From Scenedesmus sp. PABB004 (taxonomy: Eukaryota): DNA of 64,000 bases. Of this stretch, positions 8,301-26,300 are shown piece by piece. The DNA lies in contig JABVCE010000002.1 in NCBI GenBank assembly GCA_014905635.1, forward strand, positions 2,356,001 through 2,420,000. Reading direction: 5' to 3'. The notes below the pieces were generated by a model. That model did not search any database. It was given only the letters and a program-made list of their open reading frames with translations, and had not been told where the DNA came from. The position numbers and the translations under genes were made by a program. Position 1 is the first letter of the stretch. Every line of letters starts with the position of its first letter.

Positions 8301-9251
8301 CTACCTGCGCCCGCGGGCGCCCTTGGGCCCGGCGCCGCCGCGCACGAAGGCCCAGCTGATGCTGATCGCCTGCCCAAGCAGCTCGGTGCCGTCGAGGGCC
8401 TTGATCGCCTCGCGCGCCTCCTTCTCGGTCCCATACTCAATGAGCGCGTAGCCCTTGACGTACCCCGTCTGGCGGTCCAGGTTGAGGTACACGTTCTTGA
8501 CGTCGCCGTAGTCGGCAAACGCCTCCGCCACGTCCTCCTCCTGCGCCTGCGAAGCGGGCGCGGCGGCGCGGGAGGGAGAGGGAGCGGCCGCGGCGCGTGG
8601 GCGGGGCGTGCCGGGCGAGCGAGCAGCGCAGCGCGGCGCGCACGGCGGCGGGCCCTGCGAGCCGTGGGCCTCGCTGCCGGCCGGGGCCTTGCTGCCGCAC
8701 GGGTGCCACCAGCCGCGGGCGCACGCGTGCGGCCCGCGCCGCCGCCCGCCCCGGCGCCGCGGGCCGCCGCTGCTGCGTGCCGGCCGGCGCGGCGCGGCGG
8801 CTGCACGGCGCGCCGATCGCCGCGTCCCGCGCCGCCAGCGTCTCCGGCTGCGCTGGCGCTGTCCCGCGCTGCGGCGGCCGCCGCATGCCCCGCGCCGGCC
8901 GCGCGCGCGCCGCAGCAGCGGCGGCGCGCCGCGCCGACGGCTGCCGCCGCGCCGGCGCCGCGGCGCGCCTGATCCGCCCGCCCGCCCGCTCCCGGGAGTA
9001 GGGGGCCTCACCTCCTCGTGCAGGCCGGTCACGAAGAGCACCCAGCCCTCCACAGACTTGGCCGGCCCGCTCTCGCCCGCGGCGCCCTCCAGCGCCTCGT
9101 AGCGCGCGTTGCCGCCCTCCTCCTCGCGCTCGTCAGCGCGGAAGCCGCGGCCCTTGCGCTTGCCGTCGGCGCCGGGCGCCACCACCGCGCTGCGGACGCC
9201 GCGCGCCGGCTGCTGCTCGCCCTCGTCCATGCGGTCTTCCTGATCCGACAT
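8301..9251 (-). CDS. RBM8A: RNA-binding protein 8A / Y14, exon junction complex RRM subunit
   Basis: KRKGRGF, GPAKSVEGWVLFVTGLHEE|AQEED, NLDRQTGYVKGYALIEY; single GT-AG intron 9011-8547. Confidence 0.95.
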   Translation of the reverse strand: MSDQEDRMDEGEQQPARGVRSAVVAPGADGKRKGRGFRADEREEEGGNARYEALEGAAGESGPAKSVEGWVLFVTGLHEEVRPPTPGSGRAGGSGAPRRRRGGSRRRGAPPLLRRARGRRGACGGRRSAGQRQRSRRRWRRGTRRSARRAAAAPRRPARSSGGPRRRGGRRRGPHACARGWWHPCGSKAPAGSEAHGSQGPPPCAPRCAARSPGTPRPRAAAAPSPSRAAAPASQAQEEDVAEAFADYGDVKNVYLNLDRQTGYVKGYALIEYGTEKEAREAIKALDGTELLGQAISISWAFVRGGAGPKGARGRR

Positions 9252-9639
9252 GGCGCCGCCGGCCGCGCGCCGCCCCCTGCGCCCCTTGGGAGACCCGCCT
9301 TTGCTGCTGCTACTGATTGGCGGGCCCTGGCGTGCGGGTGCTGGGCGGTGCGGTCCGGGGGCTGCGCCTGGGCGTGCCGCGAGCGGTGTGGCAGCGGCCA
9401 GGCGGGGCTGCCGGGCCGGCGCTGGTTGCCGTCGCTTCCGCTGCTGCGTTGCGCCGCCGCTTGCACCGCCGCGCGCAACGCGCGCCCGCGCGACGCGCGC
9501 CAGCACTGCCCGGCAGCCCCTGCTGGGGGGCTGCAGCGACCAGGTGACCAGCACAGCTCACGCCGCCGCACCCGCGCGGGGGGGCTGCCAATGCGGCGGC
9601 GCCCCAAGGGAAAAGTGCAGTGCGCTCTCGAGCGCCGCG

Positions 9640-12027
<2,388 letters not shown>

Positions 12028-12709
12028 GGCGGCTGAGCTTCGCCCCGAGACTGCGGCGGGGGCGCGGGGCGGGGGCAATTGGCCGCGCGCGGGCTGCGGG
12101 CTGCCGCTGCTGCCGCCGCCGTCGCTGCCGGCGCGCCGGGCACGCGTGGGTGGCAAAGCCCGCGACCAGGGTCCGCCTGTGCTGCCCGAACCGCGGCCTG
12201 CACCGACCGCCTCGCGCCGCAGTGCGCCGCGACGCTGCTGCGCCAGCCTCTCTCACGGGCGCGACGGCGCGCGCGCTCTGCCGTGGAGGAGCGGGCCCAC
12301 CTGAATGCGCCGAGTGCGCGCGCGCGCGTCGGCGCTCGATCGGCGTGCTTCGCGAGGGGCCGCGCCTGCTGCTGCTGCTGCTGCTGCCACGCGCGCCGTT
12401 TCGCGCTCGTGCGTCGGTGAGCAGGTCCGGCGGTGACAACGCAGCCGGCGGCGGCCGGGTCGGCCACGCGGCGGCGGCGCGGGGCGCAGCGCGAGACCGC
12501 GCCGCCCCTGCGACGCACCGCGCGGCCCGCCCATCCGCCCGCCACTGCGGTCGTCACGCCGGGCGCGATCGCCGCCGCCCCGCGGGAGGCCGGCCCCGCG
12601 CGGTCCGCTGCCGCTGCGCGGCGCGCTGCCCGCCCGTGCAAGCAAGCTGCGCGCCCGGCAGCCGCCGATCCCGCTGATCCAGCGCCCGGCGGCGCCGCCG
12701 CCGGCAGCC

Positions 12710-15700
12710 ATGCAGCGCGCGGCCGCGCGCGCGGCCGCCTGGCGCCTGCGCCGCGCGCCGGTCGCGCGGCCCGCGCCGCTGGTCGCGGCGGCCGGCGCCG
12801 CCGCCGGCGCCGGCGGCGCCCGCTCCACGCAGACCTCCACCCGGCGCCGCCGCCGGACGAGCACCGCGGCGCGGCCGGCGCTCGAGCCGCAGCAGCAGCG
12901 CGGCGCCGCCTCGCGAGCGGAGCGCGCGCCGCGGCCGGCGGACCCGCCGGCGCCGGCGCCGCCGCCCGACCCGCCGGCTGGCGCCGGGCTGCTGCTGGGC
13001 GCGGCGCCGGCGGACCCGGCCTTTGCCGCGGCGCGCGGCTGGGTGGTGTTCAGCGACCTGCACGTCTCGACCAAGACGGTCGACACGGCGCTGCAGGTGC
13101 TGCGGGTCGTGCACCGCGCGGCGGCCGACCGCGGCGCCGGCGTGCTCTTCCTGGGTGCGCCGCACGCCGCAGCCCGCCGTGGCGCGGCGCGGGCGGGCGC
13201 GCCGCGGGCGGTCGCGCCGCTTGCTGGCGGCCCGCCCAAATTACGCCGCGCCGCGCCGCGCCGCGCCGCAGGCGACTTTTGGGACCGCCGCGGCGACCTG
13301 CCGGTCGTGCCGCTGAACCGCGTGCAGCAGGAGCTGCGGTCGTGGGAGGTGCCGCTGCTGCTGCTGCCCGGCAACCACGACCAGGTCGACCTGGGCGGCC
13401 AGCACCACTCGCTGGAGCCGCTCACGATGGCCGCGCGCGCGGCGCACGTCTTCACGCACCCCACGCTCTACCGGTGCGCCGCGCGCTGCGGCCGCCACCG
13501 CCCGCGCGCCGCCTGCTGAGCGCACCGCCCCGCGCCGACGCGCGCGCGCCGCGCCACTCGCAGCGACGCGCTGTGGCTGCCCTACCGCCGCGACGAGGCG
13601 GTGCTGCGCGGCGCGATCGCGCAGGCGAAGGCGGCGGGGCCGCTCAAGGCGATCTTTGGCCACGCTGACGTGGTGCGCCGCCGCCGCCTGCCGCCACGCG
13701 CGCTGTCGCCGCCGCGGCTGCCGGCGCCCGCGCCGACCGCGCCCCGCTGCCGACGCCGCCACCGCCGCCGCCGCCGCGTCGCAGCTGACGGCGCGCATGA
13801 ACGCGGCTCACCAGGCGCGCGACGGGCTGCCGCCGGGGCTCTTCCCCGCGCGCGTGCCTGTCTATCTGGGGCACTACCACCTCCCCCAGACGCTGCCGGG
13901 CAGCGCCATCACCTACGTGGGCTCGCCCTTCCAGGGTACGCGGCGCGCGGCGCGCGGTGGCTGCGCCGGCGGCGCGCGGGCGCCGCTGACCGCCGGCCGC
14001 GCGCCGCGCGCCGCGCGTGTGCAGTGACGAGCAGCGAGGCGGGGCAGCAGAAGCGGCTGCTGCTGCTGGACGAGCACTGGCAGGCGGCCGGCGAGGTGCC
14101 GCTGGACGTCGGCCGCCGCTTCTTCACCTTGTCCGCGCCCGGCGCCAGCAGCGGCGGCGCGAGCGTGACCGCCGGCAGCGACAGCGACGCCGACGCGGTC
14201 GGCGGCGCGCTCAGCGACGCCGCGAGCGGCAGCGAGGGCGAGGGCGGCGGCGTGCCAGGCAGCGGCGGCGGCGGCCTGGCGCTCAGCCCCGGCGCGGTGG
14301 GCGAGCTGCTCGCCTCGGGCGCGCTGCGCCGGGGCGACGTCGCGCACCTGCGGGCGGAGGCCGAGGACGGCGCGCTGCTGGAGGTGCAGCGCCTGCTGGC
14401 GGCCGAGGGCGTGCAGGTGCAGCTGCACCTGCGCCCGCCCGCGCGCGCCGCGCCGCGCATCGCGTCGGCGGAGCAGCTGTCCATGGCGGCGCTGCTGGAG
14501 CAGTACGCTGCCAACACGGGCATGGCGCCCGAGGTGCTGGCCCTCGCGCGGCAGGCGCTGCAGGTGTGCGGCGCGCACGCGCAGGCCAGCCGCTCCAGCA
14601 CCGCGGCGGCCGCGGGGCGCCGACGCGCGCCGCGCGCCGCGGCGCGCAGGGGCTGGGCTCGCGCGGGAGCGACACGCCGCCGCACAGCCACCTGCAGCTG
14701 TCAGACGTCACAGTCGAGGGCTTTGGGCCCTTCCGCGAGCCGGTGACCTACCCGCTTGCCGGCCGGGGCGTCGTGGCGGTCACCGGCCGCAACGAGGACG
14801 ACACGGCCGCGGCGAGCAACGGCGCGGGCAAGACGAGCCTGCTCACCGCGCTGCTCTGGGCATTCAAGGCGCCCGACGGCCGCGGCATGACGGCTGCAGA
14901 CTACGTGAACGAGGACAGCAAGCGCGCGGCGGTCACGGTCACGGGCACGATCAACGGGGTGGGTGCGCGTGCGCGCCACGCTCGTGCCGTGCTGCGCTCC
15001 GCTCCGCTCCGCGCCGCGCCGCGCCGTGCCGCGCCACGCCGCGACGTGCTGCGCCGCGCCGACCCCGCGCGCGCCTCCGCCGCCGGCGCTGCAGGAGCCG
15101 TTTGAGCTGACGCGCACCGTGACGGGCGGCCGCCGCCCGCGGAGCGGGCTCGCGCTGTCCGTCGGCGGCGAGGACCTGACCTGCCAGGAGCAGCGCCACA
15201 CCGAGGACGCGCTGCGCCGGCTGTTCAGCAGCGCGCTGCTGCCGCAGACGCTCGTGTTCACTCAGGAGGACCTGCTGCGCCTCCTGCAGGCGCGCCTGCC
15301 GCGCCGCCCGCCGCGCCGCCCGCCGCGCCGCCCGCCGTGCCGCTCGCGGCAGCGCGCGACCCACGCCCGCGCCGCCCGTGCGCCGCCCGCGCGCCGCAGT
15401 CGGGTGACCGAGAGTTCAAGGAGCAGCTGTCCTGCGTCGTGGACACGCAGGCCTGGGACGAGGCCAAGGAGGTGTCGGCCGCGGCCATCACGGGCTTGCG
15501 CCAGCAGCTCGCGGCCGCGGACGTCGTCGCTGCGCAGGCGGCGGCCGACGCGGCGGCCGCGGCCGACGGCGCGGCCGCGGCGGCCGCGCGCGCGGGCGCG
15601 TGGGAGGCCGACCGCGCGGCGCAGCTGGCGCAGCTGGAGGAGGTGGGCGTGCAGTGCGTGCGGGGCCTGGAGGCGGGCGTCGACGCGGCGGCCGCGCTGC

Positions 15701-18081
15701 AGCACGAGCTGCACGCCGCGCTCGCGGCAGCGGCGGCGCGGCGCGGCGCGCTTGAGGCGGACCAGGCGGCGGCCGCGGCTGCGGCCGCGGCCGCCGCCGA
15801 CGCAGCCGACGCGGAGGCCGCGGCGCTCGAGGAGCGGCACCGTGCCGAGCTGGAGCAGCTGCAGCAGCGACTGCTCGGCGGCGGCGGCGCTGACGGGTCG
15901 CTGGAGCTGCCGGTGTTTGACGAGTCCGCCGTCGAGGCGCGGCTGGCCCCGCTGCTGGCAGCCGAGCAGGCGCTCGCGGCGCGGCTCGCGGAGCAGCAGG
16001 GCGCGAGCCAGGCGCTGCGCGGCCAGATCGCCGCCGTGCGGGCGCGGCTGGCGCGGTACAGCGGGATCACCTCCGGCGCGCCCAGCGGCGGCGCCCGGGT
16101 CGCCGTGGCGGGCGCGGCCGCGGCCGCTGCCGGCGGGCGCCACGCCGGCGGCGCCTGCGGCAGCCCGGTGTGCGAGCAGTGCCTGCAGCCCATCGATCTC
16201 CAGCTCTACCAGCGGTGAGCCCGCGACGCGGCGCGCTTCGCGCGCTGCGCGACGCAACGGCGCGGCGCCAGCCCGCACCGCCCTTGGCCGCGCGCGCGCG
16301 CACTCACGCCTCCCTGTGCGCCCGCCGCGCGCGTCGCTCGCGCCGCCGCCGCCGCCGCAGCAACCTGGACGGCATGGCAGGCGAGGAGGCGGAGCTGCAG
16401 CAGCAGCTGGCGGCCTCGCGCGAGGACGAGGCGCGCCTGGCGGCCGCGCACGCGGCGGCGCAGCAGGACCGCGGCGCCGCGCAGCAGCAGCACGCCGCGG
16501 CGGCGCAGGAGGTGCGCGCGGCGCGCGAGCGCCTGATGCAGCAGCAGGCGGAGCAGCAGCAGCGCCGAGCGCAGGCGGTCGAGGAGATGCGGCGGCTGGA
16601 GCAGCGCCAGCGCCTCGAGCAGCAGGAGCGGCAGCAGCGCGTGTGGCAGGAGGAGCGCCGGCTGCAGTGGTGAGCGGCGGCGGGGCCGGGGGCAGCGGTC
16701 TGCGAACGCAGCTGCGCCGCGCGCGCGGCAGCGCCCGACGCGCACGCGCCGCCGCCCACGACGCCGCCAGGGAGCTGCACGAGCTGCAGCAGCTGACATC
16801 GCAGCTGCAGGCTGCGGACGCCCAGGTGGCGAGCGGCCTGGCGGCCGCGAGCGAGCGGCTACAGCTCCCGGGCGGCGCCGCTCCCGCGCGCTCGTGCAGC
16901 TTTGAGGGGGCCGCCGCGGCAGCGGATGACCCGGCGGCGCTGGAGCAGGCGCCGCAGCTGTGCAAGCGCGCGGGTGAACTCAGCGCCGCGCTGGGTCAGC
17001 TCGCGGACGGCGTGCTGTCCTCGCGCGCGTCGCGCGAGTCGCTGGCGGGCGCCGTCAACCCGCACGCCTCGGGCGTGCAGGCGCTGGAGCGCGGCCTCGC
17101 CGAGCAGCGCCGCCGGGTGGAGGAGACCCGGGAGCAGCAGGAGGAGCTGACAAAGCAGGTGTGGGGGCGCACGCGCGCGACGCGCGCTGGCCCGCCTGCT
17201 GCTGACGCCGGGCGTCGCCGCCGCCGCGCCGCGCGCGCAGCTGTCGCTGTGGCGGCGCGTGGACGTGGCGTTTGGGCGCACCGGGGTGCCGTCGTTCATT
17301 CTGGAGGACGTGCTCGGCGAGCTGCAGGCCGCGTGCAGCCGCCACCTCGGCGCGCTCGCGGCCGGCATGGCCCTCGAGCTCTCCGCGACGAGCGCCAAGC
17401 GCACGGCGCCCGCCGCCGGCAAGGCCCCGCGCGCGGCCAAGGCCGCCAAGGCGCCGGCTGCGCCGTGGGACGCGCTCGCGCCCGCGGGCGCCGCCGCCGG
17501 GCTGGCCGTCGGCGGCGCCGCCGCCGCCGGCGCGCCGCCCGCGCCGCCGCCGGCACATGAGGTGAAGGAGGAGATTTCCAAGATCGTCCGCGTGCGCGCG
17601 GCGGGCGGCGAGCTGCGGGAGCGCAGCGTCGCGCAGCTGAGCGGCGGCGAGAAGAAGCGCGTCGCGCTCGCGCTCGGCCTCGGCTTTGCCGAGCTCGTCG
17701 CCGCGCGCAGCCGGCTCACCAGCAACGTGCTGGTGCTCGACGAGGTGCGCGGCGACTGGGTGGGCGCGGCGGCGGGGGCGGGCGGGCGTGCAGGCCCCGG
17801 CCTGACGGGCAGCGCAGACGGGGCGCGGCGCCGCCCACCGACGCCGCGCCGCCGCCGCCGGCCGCCGCGCGCGTGCACACACGCAGGTGCTGGAGAAGCT
17901 GGACGAGGAGGGCTGCGCCTGCGTGGCGGGGCTGCTCAAGTCGCTGCCCTACTCCAGCGTGTTTGTGGTGGGCCAGGCCGGCAGCTTTGTCACCAAGGAG
18001 TTTGCTTGCGTCGACACCGTGGTCAAAGCCGGCGGCGCGGCGCGCGTCGAGCTTGGCGGCGGCGCCGCCGCGCGCGCTTGA
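12710..18081 (+). CDS. Fused SbcD/Mre11-type metallophosphoesterase nuclease + SbcC/Rad50-type SMC ATPase, ~1386 aa, 12 exons, probable organelle transit peptide
   Basis: Exons 12710-13154, 13272-13473, 13564-13672, 13785-13935, 14025-14563, 14650-14958, 15095-15289, 15400-16214, 16361-16669, 16771-17158, 17241-17744 and 17887-18081 sum to 4161 nt with a continuous frame. Nuclease motifs: SDLH, GDFW, GNHD, GHAD, GHYH. ATPase motifs: VEGFGPF, Walker A NGAGKT, Q-loop VFTQ, coiled coil with CEQC hook, signature LSGGE, Walker B VLVLDE, D-loop LD. Confidence 0.88.
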
Positions 18082-23389: not shown

Positions 23390-26300
23390 CTAAAGGCCAT
23401 CCCCGGCAGCGGCCGCCACCGCAGGGGCCATGGTCCACTGCTGCCCTCCGTCCCGCGGCGCCGCAGCGGGCGGCGCCGGCGGCGACCGCGACCGCGGCTG
23501 CGCGCCGCCCCGGGGCATGCTGACCGGGCGCTCAGAGGCCGCGGAGCCCCGCCGCTGCTGGCCGCCCGACGCGCCGGCACTGCCCCAGCGCTGGCCGTCG
23601 TCGGGCGTGCCGCTGCTGCCCAGGCGCCGCTGCTGCTGCTCCAGCTCCAGCGCTGCGTGGCGCCACAGGTAGCCGCTCTCAGCTGCGCGCTGCTCCTGGT
23701 GCTGCTGGTGCTGGTGCTGCGACAGCGCCCCATGCGGCGCCGCCGCGGGCAGCAGCGGCACCAAGGCCTGCGCCGGCGGCTGCCGCTGCAGCGCGCGCCG
23801 CTGCAGCAGCGCCTGCTGCGCCAGCGCCTGTGCCTGCTGCGCCTGCCAGCGCAGCGCTCGCTGCTGCAGCTGCATCGCGCGGTGCTGCTGCAGCTGCAGC
23901 TGGCGCTGCCGGTGCTGGGCCTGCAGCTCGCGCAGGTGCTGGTGCACGAGCGCCTGGTACTGGCCCTGCAGCTGCTGCTGCTCGGGCGTCAGCCCCGGCA
24001 CGGGGCCCGCCTGCTGCGCCGCCAGTGCGACCAGCTGCTGGTGGTGGTGCTGCTGCTGTGGCTGCTGCTGCTGCGGGTGTGCCGCCTGCGGCGCCCGGCC
24101 CTGCAGCAGCTGCTGCCGCGCGCGCGCCTGCCTCGCGGCCCACCAGGGCGCCCAGCGCGGGAAGCGCGCGGCAAACTCCTCGTGCGGCGCCCGCAGCACG
24201 TCCAGCAGCGCCATGCCGCCCGCGTCGTGTGTGGCGACCAGGAACTCGAGTCGCTCAAACCGACTGTAGTTGGCGCCAAACGCGCCCTCCGCGGCGGGCG
24301 GCCGCAGCGCCGCCCACTGCTGCCGCCATGCCGGCACGAGCGCGAGCGCCGCGCGCAGCCGCGCGCCGCGCAGCAGCAGCCGCGGCGCCGGCAGCAGCAG
24401 CAGCCGCGCGCTGCGCGCCGCGACGGCGTACGCGAAGCCCTCGCTGCGGCCGAGCACGAGCGGCAGCAGCTGGTACGCGACGCGCACGGCCTCGAGGTCG
24501 GCGCGCAGCAGCGCGGGCGTCGTGTAGACGAGCGCCGCCACCGCGGCGCGGTCGCGGCGGAAGAGCGCCATCAGCACGCGCAGCTTGTTGTGCAGCACGC
24601 GGCTCGACATGCACAGCGCGCTCGGGAACGCGGCCGCGAGGCGCGCCGCGCACACGGGGCGCAGCCCGAGGATCGCGCGCAGCGCGCCCGCGCGGCGGCG
24701 CAGGCCCGCGCCCGAGTCGGACAGCAGCTCCGGCGCGGCCGCGACCATGCGCAGCGCGGCGGCGGGGCGCACGCCGAACCAGTCGCAGAGGCCCGACAGC
24801 CGCGCCACGACGCCCGGCAGCGGGCGGCCGAGCAGCGCGGGCGCGCGCACCGCGGCCGCGACGACCGCCGCCGGCGAGGCGAGGCCGAGCGCCGCCGAGA
24901 GCGCGGCCGCGGCGGCCGCCGCCTCGCCCGCGGGGCGCAGCAGCAGGCGGCCCGGGTGGCGGCTGGCCATGAAGGCGGCGGCCTTGTGGCTCACGCCTAG
25001 CGTGGCCGCCAGCTGCTGCACCGCGTCCTCGACCGCGCGCGGCTGCACCGCCACGAGCGCGGGGTGGCGCTGCAGCAGGCGCTGCGCGGCCGCCACCGGC
25101 ATGTGCAGCGCGCCCGCCAGCGCCGCCAGCTGCGAGTGCGACGCGGCGCGGGCTGCGGGGCGGGCGGGACGGCGTGCGGGCGTGGGCGGGCGGGCGGAGT
25201 GCGAGCGAAGCGGGCCGCGACGCAGCGCGGCCGCGGCAGGGCCGGGCGCAGCAGGCTCAGGCGCGGCGCGCAGGCCTCCCGCTCACCGCCTGCCGCGGCG
25301 GGGCCGTCCGCCGGCCGCATCAGCTGTGGCTGCAGGTCAGGCGCGCGCTGCGGGCGCTGCTGCTCCGTCGCCGACGGCAGCAGCTGCTGCCCAGCCGCGC
25401 GCGCGGAGCCGTCGCCCTGCGCGCCTTGGTCGCCGTTGCCGGCGCCGCCGCTGCTGCTGCTGCTGCTGCTGCTCTGCTGCTCCCTGCCTAGCTGCTCAGC
25501 ATCCGCACTGAACGCTCTGCTGCTGCGGTGCCCGTTGCTCAGCAGCCGCGCCGCCGCCAGCGGCTGCTGGACGTGGTGGTGCTGCTGCTGCTCTCCAGGC
25601 AGCACCTGCTGCCCAGTGTTTGCGCAGCCGTTGCTGCGCTGCGGCGCACGTGGCCCGCCTCCGCCGCGACCGTTGCTGCTCGCCCGCTGCTGCGGCGGCT
25701 CGGGCGCGCCGTTGACCTCCGGGTGCTGCTGCTGCTGCTGCTGCTGCAGCTGCTGCAGCTGCTGCTGCTGCAGCTGCTGCTGCTGTTGCTGCTGCTCCCG
25801 CTGTCGCACGGCGCTGCTGCCGTTGCCGCCGCGCGCCGGCGGCCCGGCCACGCGGCCCATGCGCTGCTGCGCATGGTGCTGCTCGTGCAGCTGCTGCGCC
25901 GCGCCCGCAAGGTGGTGGCCCAGCGGCTCCTGCTCCTGCTCCTGCTGCAGTTGGTGCTGCTGCTCCGACGGCAGCTGCGGCGGCAGCGGCGCGCGGCGCG
26001 CGCGCAGCCGCTGCTGCGGCGGCGCGCCGACGACCGCGACCTCCCCGCTCTGGACGCCTGCGGCTGGGGGAGCGAGAGCGGCGGGGGTGGGGGGCGGGGT
26101 TGGGGGCCGCCAATGAGGGCCCCGCGGGGCCGGCGCTGCGCCGGCGCGCGCCGCCGCGGCGGCGGGCGGCGGCGCCGCTGCTGCCGGCGCCCTCCCCTCA
26201 CCTGGTCGCACGCCCTGGCGACGCGGCCGCGGCTCACGGTGCGGCAGCACCTGCGTGTGCGGCCGCGTCAGCAGCGCGCCGCGCAGGCGCGGCGTGGGCG

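Follow-up and report, generated by a model that had tools for sequence, protein, structure and literature searches.

A phage-type single-chain SbcD-SbcC (Mre11-Rad50-like) protein encoded by Scenedesmus sp. PABB004, with a candidate organelle presequence

Mre11-type nucleases and Rad50-type ATPases joined in a single polypeptide have been on record since Yoshida, Claverie and Ogata described the mimivirus protein R555 as an Mre11/Rad50 fusion in 2011, along with twelve others, including those of Physcomitrella, Phaeodactylum and two Micromonas, which make up a supported 'moss-diatom-prasinophyte group' (PMC3175470). According to the portions of that paper available, the organisms of this group retain canonical Mre11 and Rad50 as well, the fusions are distinct from canonical Mre11/Rad50 and were proposed to be of viral origin, and R555 falls among metagenome sequences and outside the eukaryotic group (PMC3175470); a 2026 preprint, in its accessible part, adds many Mre11-Rad50 fusions in viruses (bioRxiv 10.64898/2026.07.21.739742). 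The gene described here lies in a 64,000-nucleotide stretch of the chlorophycean alga Scenedesmus sp. PABB004 (contig JABVCE010000002.1, positions 2,356,001 to 2,420,000; hereafter the window, with positions counted from its first nucleotide), and is a further member of this known fusion family. The fusion architecture being already in print, the window contributes one more member and some comparative detail rather than a novel type of system.

Like the fusions of the 2011 study, the window protein places an N-terminal Metallophos nuclease before a C-terminal Rad50-like ATPase on one chain, with the same nuclease signature (DxH...GD...GNH(D/E) and C-terminal His motifs), and with R555 and the other viral fusions it shares the single-chain Mre11-Rad50 nuclease-ATPase core. 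The 2011 set, as given in the available portions of the paper, includes neither Scenedesmus sp. PABB004 nor any other chlorophycean or trebouxiophycean, and those portions do not discuss N-terminal targeting extensions, a Gln in the H-loop, or a close phage pair within an SSB-UvsX-RuvC module. In our analyses the window protein clusters with green algae, Mesostigma, and Mamiellophyceae-like intron-free metagenome open reading frames (ORFs), and it would be expected to co-cluster with the moss, diatom and prasinophyte members A9RK34, B7FXD6, C1N0B1 and C1FJU6. An earlier note on this DNA had called such fusions sporadic, naming mimivirus as an example; fusions are indeed on record, but their extent was understated, with those of green algae, a moss and a diatom reported in 2011. 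New here are the kinship with a phage recombination module, the H-loop Gln in extended forms, and the basic, acid-poor extensions lacking in phage forms.

The window protein has a fused architecture with intact nuclease metal-ligand motifs, ABC motifs that are complete except for the H-loop His, and a coiled coil with a CxxC hook, encoded as follows.

12710-18081, plus strand: whole coding region; 12 exons, 11 introns, 4161 nucleotides (nt) of coding sequence, 1386 residues, one terminal stop
12710-13154, 13272-13473, 13564-13672, 13785-13935, 14025-14563, 14650-14958, plus strand: exons 1-6
15095-15289, 15400-16214, 16361-16669, 16771-17158, 17241-17744, 17887-18081, plus strand: exons 7-12
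12710-13039, plus strand: N-terminal extension, residues 1-110, Ala/Arg/Pro-rich; candidate organelle presequence
13040-14563, plus strand: nuclease (Mre11/SbcD type), capping region and C-terminal helical linker; exons 1-5, residues 111-483, all five phosphoesterase motifs
13049-13066, plus strand: nuclease DxH motif
13154-13285, plus strand: nuclease GD motif, spanning intron 1
13155-13271, plus strand: intron 1; 117 nt, in frame, stop-free
13370-13384, plus strand: nuclease GNHD motif
13658-13672, plus strand: nuclease GHADV motif
13869-13886, plus strand: nuclease GHYH motif
14564-14649, plus strand: intron 5; 86 nt, phase 0, GT-AG (GTGTGC...GCGCAG), exactly at the nuclease/ATPase junction
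14650-15289, plus strand: ATPase N-lobe; exons 6-7
14815-14838, plus strand: Walker A, SNGAGKTS, preceded by a 9-residue insert
15254-15271, plus strand: Q-loop of the ATPase N-lobe
15290-15399, plus strand: intron 7; 110 nt, GC-AG, donor GCGCGC; exon join ungapped in homologues
15400-17158, plus strand: antiparallel coiled-coil arms; exons 8-10
16171-16191, plus strand: CEQC zinc hook; zinc binding predicted
17241-18081, plus strand: ATPase C-lobe; exons 11-12, stop at 18079-18081
17637-17660, plus strand: signature motif, LSGGEKKR
17727-17744, plus strand: Walker B, VLVLDE
across intron 11, plus strand: D-loop
17965-17985, plus strand: H-loop position, VVGQA, with Gln replacing His

Script assembly of the exons reproduces exactly the model of the earlier note, 12 exons and 4161 nt without a stop between the modules, with the phase-0 intron at 14564-14649 joining both halves in frame; a motif search likewise recovers each element of the complete five-motif nuclease and of the SMC-type ATPase with a CEQC hook that it had described. 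The metal-ligand columns of the nuclease are invariant or almost so in alignments A1 and A2 of the family, and both Cys residues of the hook are invariant in them. Pfam searches of single exons and of the full database protein return AAA_23, SMC_N, and SbcC_Walker_B, with Metallophos passing in the Raphidocelis orthologue only, and Mre11_DNA_bind and Rad50_zn_hook absent from the matches of four family members (E up to 0.01). The hook of Rad50 is CPxC, in contrast to the CEQC of the window protein.

The phage-type nature of the window protein is well supported by profile scores and alignments. The corresponding database entry is a 1425-residue NCBI protein of the same alga (HT031_001402, P0001), to which exon 6 is 100% identical in a search giving 15 matches among 874 candidates. 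Against PHROG profiles, P0001 scores 1.3e-38 with phrog_77 and 1.2e-12 with phrog_100, and the Coccomyxa orthologue P0016 scores 4.3e-46 and 4.4e-26 respectively, whereas the NCBIfam SbcC, SbcD, and Rad50 models match P0001 at only ~1e-3 to 1e-6, with 20-38 bits compared with cut-offs of 78-847 (22 against 478 for TIGR00618, 20 against 78 for TIGR00619, and 23 against 450 for NF008206). The best sequence match in the PDB has an E value of 0.0017, far from the solved Rad50 and SbcD structures. All of the ten nearest protein-atlas clusters listed, from 30 matches, are viral fused Metallophos+AAA proteins, and P0016 matches 592 phage records, all at below 60% identity (26-28.5% among the 40 listed).

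A scan of viral contigs yielded seven relatives, six of which are single matches spanning both halves. Two of these loci, L003 and L004, are confirmed as single ORFs of ~1000 residues, with L003 adjoining a UvsX-like recombinase and a RuvC-like resolvase. The phage locus L002 carries separate SbcD-like (342 residues) and SbcC-like (693 residues) genes with a 4-nt overlap, in the order SSB, UvsX, SbcD, SbcC, RuvC, on a contig that also bears a baseplate wedge gene, a DnaB-like helicase, and a primase. Its SbcD is 38% identical to residues 24-352 of P0016 (E 1e-70), and its SbcC aligns from P0016 residue 360, being 43% identical in one ATPase lobe and 39% in the other. The position of intron 5 in the window gene corresponds to the point where stop and start overlap in the phage pair. 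The 9-residue insert before Walker A is common to L002 and the window protein, and is absent from L003 and L004. These results agree with the proposal of the earlier note that the protein is a virus- or prokaryote-type single chain and not the canonical MRN pair, with PHROG scores far above NCBIfam scores and a collinear phage pair 38-43% identical to the algal protein.

The SbcD-like and SbcC-like proteins of tailed phages (PHROG 100 and 77) are among the closest described counterparts, giving the best profile match, collinear alignment, the same motif set, and a CxxC hook; both fused and split forms occur in phages, and T4 gp47 and gp46 bear SbcD-like and SbcC-like product names in the T4 record. 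The algal copy differs from these in being nuclear, with 11 introns, a 110-residue extension, and an H-loop Gln, and in lacking neighbouring recombinase and resolvase genes. Bacterial SbcCD (E. coli) and archaeal and eukaryotic Mre11-Rad50 share with the window protein the fold of both halves, the catalytic motif set, and the general design of an ATP-gated nuclease; however, they consist of two subunits, with Nbs1 as a further partner in eukaryotic MRN, and their sequence similarity to it is marginal.

Phylogenies of the two halves taken separately place the eukaryote forms with the phage locus L002 in both cases. In the nuclease tree (31 rows, 339 columns, careful search), the eukaryote forms and L002 form a clade (83/91) that lies beside a fused phage clade (87/80), and in the tree of the ATPase head (quick search) all eukaryote forms fall into a single clade with a Shimodaira-Hasegawa-like approximate likelihood ratio test (SH-aLRT) value of 96, with L002 as sister (SH-aLRT 99). 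The window protein is sister to Raphidocelis inside the Chlorophyceae in both trees. The branches of T4 and E. coli are very long and their positions unreliable. A FastTree analysis of 85 rows and 534 columns puts the split L002 with P0177, P0180, and P0196, which are fused, extension-less, and His-bearing, and leaves the deep order unresolved, so that fusion before or after entry into eukaryotes is possible. An origin of the algal fusion independent of the phage fusions was considered and rejected on this grouping of L002 with fused forms.

Further scans of viral contigs for L002-like elements returned L002's own contig and one weak match only, and a viral-contig scan with P0177 found no locus. 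Of two metagenome scans for relatives of the extension-less forms, the first returned none and the second (alignment A5) returned mostly Mamiellophyceae-like ORFs and three split pairs. These pairs (L096, L098, and L100, on contigs of up to 113 kb) combine SbcD-like proteins of 343-363 residues with SbcC-like proteins of 667-683 residues, with a His in the H-loop and no N-terminal extension. A scan of prokaryote genomes with two motif patterns gave one weak relative among the matches listed, which is weak evidence about bacteria.

The case for import into an organelle begins with the N-terminus, where the earlier note had described ~100 Arg/Ala/Pro-rich residues. The count is 110 ahead of the conserved block of motif I (36 Ala, 18 Arg, and 17 Pro); the first acidic residue is number 59, and residues 1-58 carry a net charge of +13. 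Given the protein's own Asp+Glu content, the acid-free run before residue 59 has a p of ~9e-4, and the extension is without any Pfam domain. Motif I is preceded by at least 40 residues in 31 of 33 full-length relatives, with the first 50 residues holding at least five Arg+Lys and at most two Asp+Glu in 24 of the 33. The SbcD of L002 begins ~13 residues before motif I, and the extension is absent from phage forms. Furthermore, the extension sequences differ between relatives, as those of transit peptides do, and all named hosts of the family carry plastids, a host range that is suggestive only, since the search methods favour close relatives. From the basic, acid-poor extension and the plastid-bearing hosts, organelle targeting of the window protein appears plausible, with the plastid somewhat favoured as the site by the host range, and with the mitochondrion or both organelles also possible. 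Chromera/Tribonema-type relatives (P0191, P0188, P0194, P0198, P0206, P0209, P0211, P0212, P0049, and P0202) carry an extra small module between the presequence-like start and the nuclease, of approximate pattern W-x-[VI]-G-D ... G-x-[IV] ... G-W-[YW]-[TS]-[VI], which the window protein lacks.

The second feature of the extended forms lies in the ATPase. The switch-His column holds 53 Gln, 2 His, 1 Pro, and 1 gap in proteins with an extension of at least 40 residues, compared with 22 His and 6 Gln in those with a shorter extension; the six include Trebouxia P0007 and P0008, whose models start at motif I, P0016 (31 residues), and P0020 (38 residues). Each of the 11 references, from phages, T4 and E. 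coli, has His in this column. The H-loop His is described as a catalytic residue in ABC ATPases (PMC6222333, in the part available). The Gln predicts a slowed ATPase step. As a natural variant spread family-wide, the change from His to Gln could shed light on how the nuclease is controlled by ATP hydrolysis.

If the enzyme works as SbcCD, T4 gp46/47, and Mre11-Rad50 do, two chains would pair through their nuclease domains, ATP-engaged heads, and zinc hook, with ATP binding and hydrolysis gating the entry of DNA ends, hairpins, and blocked ends to the nuclease. The nuclease would nick and resect DNA ends and hairpins, yielding substrates for a RecA-type recombinase. The N-terminal extension would most likely import the protein into a DNA-containing organelle, where its role may be in recombination-dependent replication and repair and in hairpin removal. 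We regard it as probable, if by no means settled, that this nuclear, intron-bearing chlorophycean gene encodes a single-chain, phage-type SbcD-SbcC enzyme of the 2011 fusion family that is imported into such an organelle.

A broader proposal is offered tentatively, namely that a phage-derived single-chain Mre11-Rad50 with a Gln switch is the as yet unassigned nuclease that processes DNA ends and hairpins in the plastids and/or mitochondria of algae and mosses, starting recombination-dependent replication and repair of organelle DNA. Phage-type RNA polymerase and primase-helicase belong to the organelle DNA machinery, and the enzyme, if the proposal is true, would be a further phage-type component beside them. 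Reviews of organelle DNA maintenance, in the parts available, name RecA homologues, Whirly, OSB, RecJ, and RecQ, and in those parts no organellar end processor of the Mre11-Rad50 type. Were the family organellar, it would fill the step of end resection and hairpin removal for repeat-rich algal organelle genomes, and would make that step open to testing through one compact gene.

Several observations weigh against organelle import and the mechanism set out above. The basic, acid-poor pattern is missing in 9 of the 33 relatives, and these 33 N-termini are mutually related sequences, some of which come from gene models of uncertain quality. Enrichment in Ala, Arg, Pro, and Gly extends across the whole of the 78% GC coding sequence, and part of the N-terminal make-up is thus genome bias. 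Additionally, the N-termini of the Chromera/Tribonema-type clade are mixed, with 7 of 24 showing a signal-peptide-like hydrophobic start and others resembling mitochondrial presequences, so that both organelles are possible, and the Chromera protein is without a clear signal peptide. A literature search found no paper on the function or localisation of the fusion family, and term searches of the main text of a chloroplast atlas preprint and of PMC4758235, as far as available, gave no mention of Rad50, SbcC, or Mre11. The H-loop Gln is unlike every reference Rad50 or SbcC examined, and the ATPase cycle may therefore differ from the textbook one. Finally, the splicing of the window gene is modelled on homology.

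The gene-wide Ala/Arg/Pro richness, the nine relatives with a different N-terminus, and the lack of localisation data in the literature all suit an alternative in which the fused phage-type enzyme is nuclear or cytosolic, serving as a second hairpin and DNA-end nuclease or in defence against viruses or transposons, with the extension being a low-complexity tail. Pairings of an ABC ATPase with a nuclease are common in defence systems, which also suits it. We consider this alternative unlikely, however, given the presence of the extension in nearly all full-length relatives and its absence from phage forms, its transit-peptide-like variation in sequence, and the plastids of all named hosts. Moreover, the organisms of the 2011 study retain canonical Mre11 and Rad50, according to the portions of that paper available (PMC3175470), and a nuclear role of the fusion would be redundant.

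The dependence of the fusion on splicing of the 86-nt intron 5, together with the homology-based nature of that splicing, might suggest that the fusion is an artefact of the gene model, with nuclease and ATPase belonging to two genes or to a decayed pseudogene. This is very improbable. The halves lie 86 nt apart, separated by an intron with GT-AG ends in phase 0, the catalytic motifs are all intact with a single stop, and the junction is gap-free against fused homologues, as are the remaining exon joins, including that at the GC-AG intron. Retention of intron 5 would cause a frameshift ending at a stop at 14744-14746. The introns (10 GT-AG and one GC-AG) are 82-146 nt long with a GC content of 85-93%, and some of their positions match domain borders, intron 5 marking the nuclease/ATPase junction and intron 10 (17159-17240) the border between the coiled coil and the ATPase C-lobe. 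The gene model equals P0001 except for 39 residues, which correspond to intron 1 read through in the NCBI model, inside nuclease motif II. All 7 aligned homologues lack these residues, which interrupt motif II, and the 12-exon model is accordingly better than the NCBI model at intron 1.

Beyond the window, the nuclease-ATPase fusion is a genuine trait of the family. A profile built from eight homologues found 40 proteins among 8000 scored candidates, nearly all of 1000-1800 residues, with fused matches from Chlorophyceae, Trebouxiophyceae, Mesostigma, Chromera, and Tribonema, and P0016, the Coccomyxa orthologue, drew 308 cluster representatives (E up to 1e-30) in a full HMMER scan. One uninterrupted ORF of ~1290-1550 residues runs across both halves in 11 of 18 metagenome loci examined, showing that the fused form is independent of any intron model. 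A search for shorter proteins returned mostly exon-sized fragments of eukaryotic gene models.

Although its closest relatives outside the eukaryote type are viral, the idea that the gene is a recent viral integration (an endogenous viral element) with no function in the host can be set aside as scarcely credible, with 11 spliceosomal introns, a host-like composition (GC of 0.78 in the coding sequence and 0.955 at third codon positions, in a window of 72-83% GC throughout), orthologues across Chlorophyceae, Trebouxiophyceae, and Mesostigma, among which the window protein groups with Raphidocelis and then with other Chlorophyceae, and ordinary cellular genes on its flanks.

A structure predicted for the orthologue P0016 from 20 aligned sequences has a mean predicted local distance difference test (pLDDT) score of 79 and a predicted template modelling (pTM) score of 0.49. 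The model comprises the nuclease and capping region, three short helices at 312-350, the ATPase head, and two long helical arms. In Foldseek searches with it, Rad50 of the Chaetomium MRN complex ranks first (E 6e-19), and the matches of the nuclease half include SbcD of E. coli and of S. aureus and Mre11 of M. jannaschii, at target-normalised template modelling (TM) scores of 0.52-0.65. A homodimer model of two copies of P0016 residues 20-355 scored 0.42, compared with 0.48 for the control.

The neighbourhood of the gene holds the following features.

8304-9557, minus strand: RRM_1 domain (1.2e-12), upstream of the nuclease gene
~9729-12252, minus strand: multi-exon DUF4336 gene, with Pfam matches in four minus-strand frames (best 2.2e-28)
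11012-11122: (GGCGCG) microsatellite of ~19 copies
23393-25282, minus strand: weak mTERF-like match (9.7e-5, just below the Pfam cut-off), downstream of the nuclease gene

The microsatellite lies inside the region of the DUF4336 gene. That gene and the nuclease gene stand head to head, with a few hundred nucleotides between the end of the first DUF4336 exon and the ATG at 12710.

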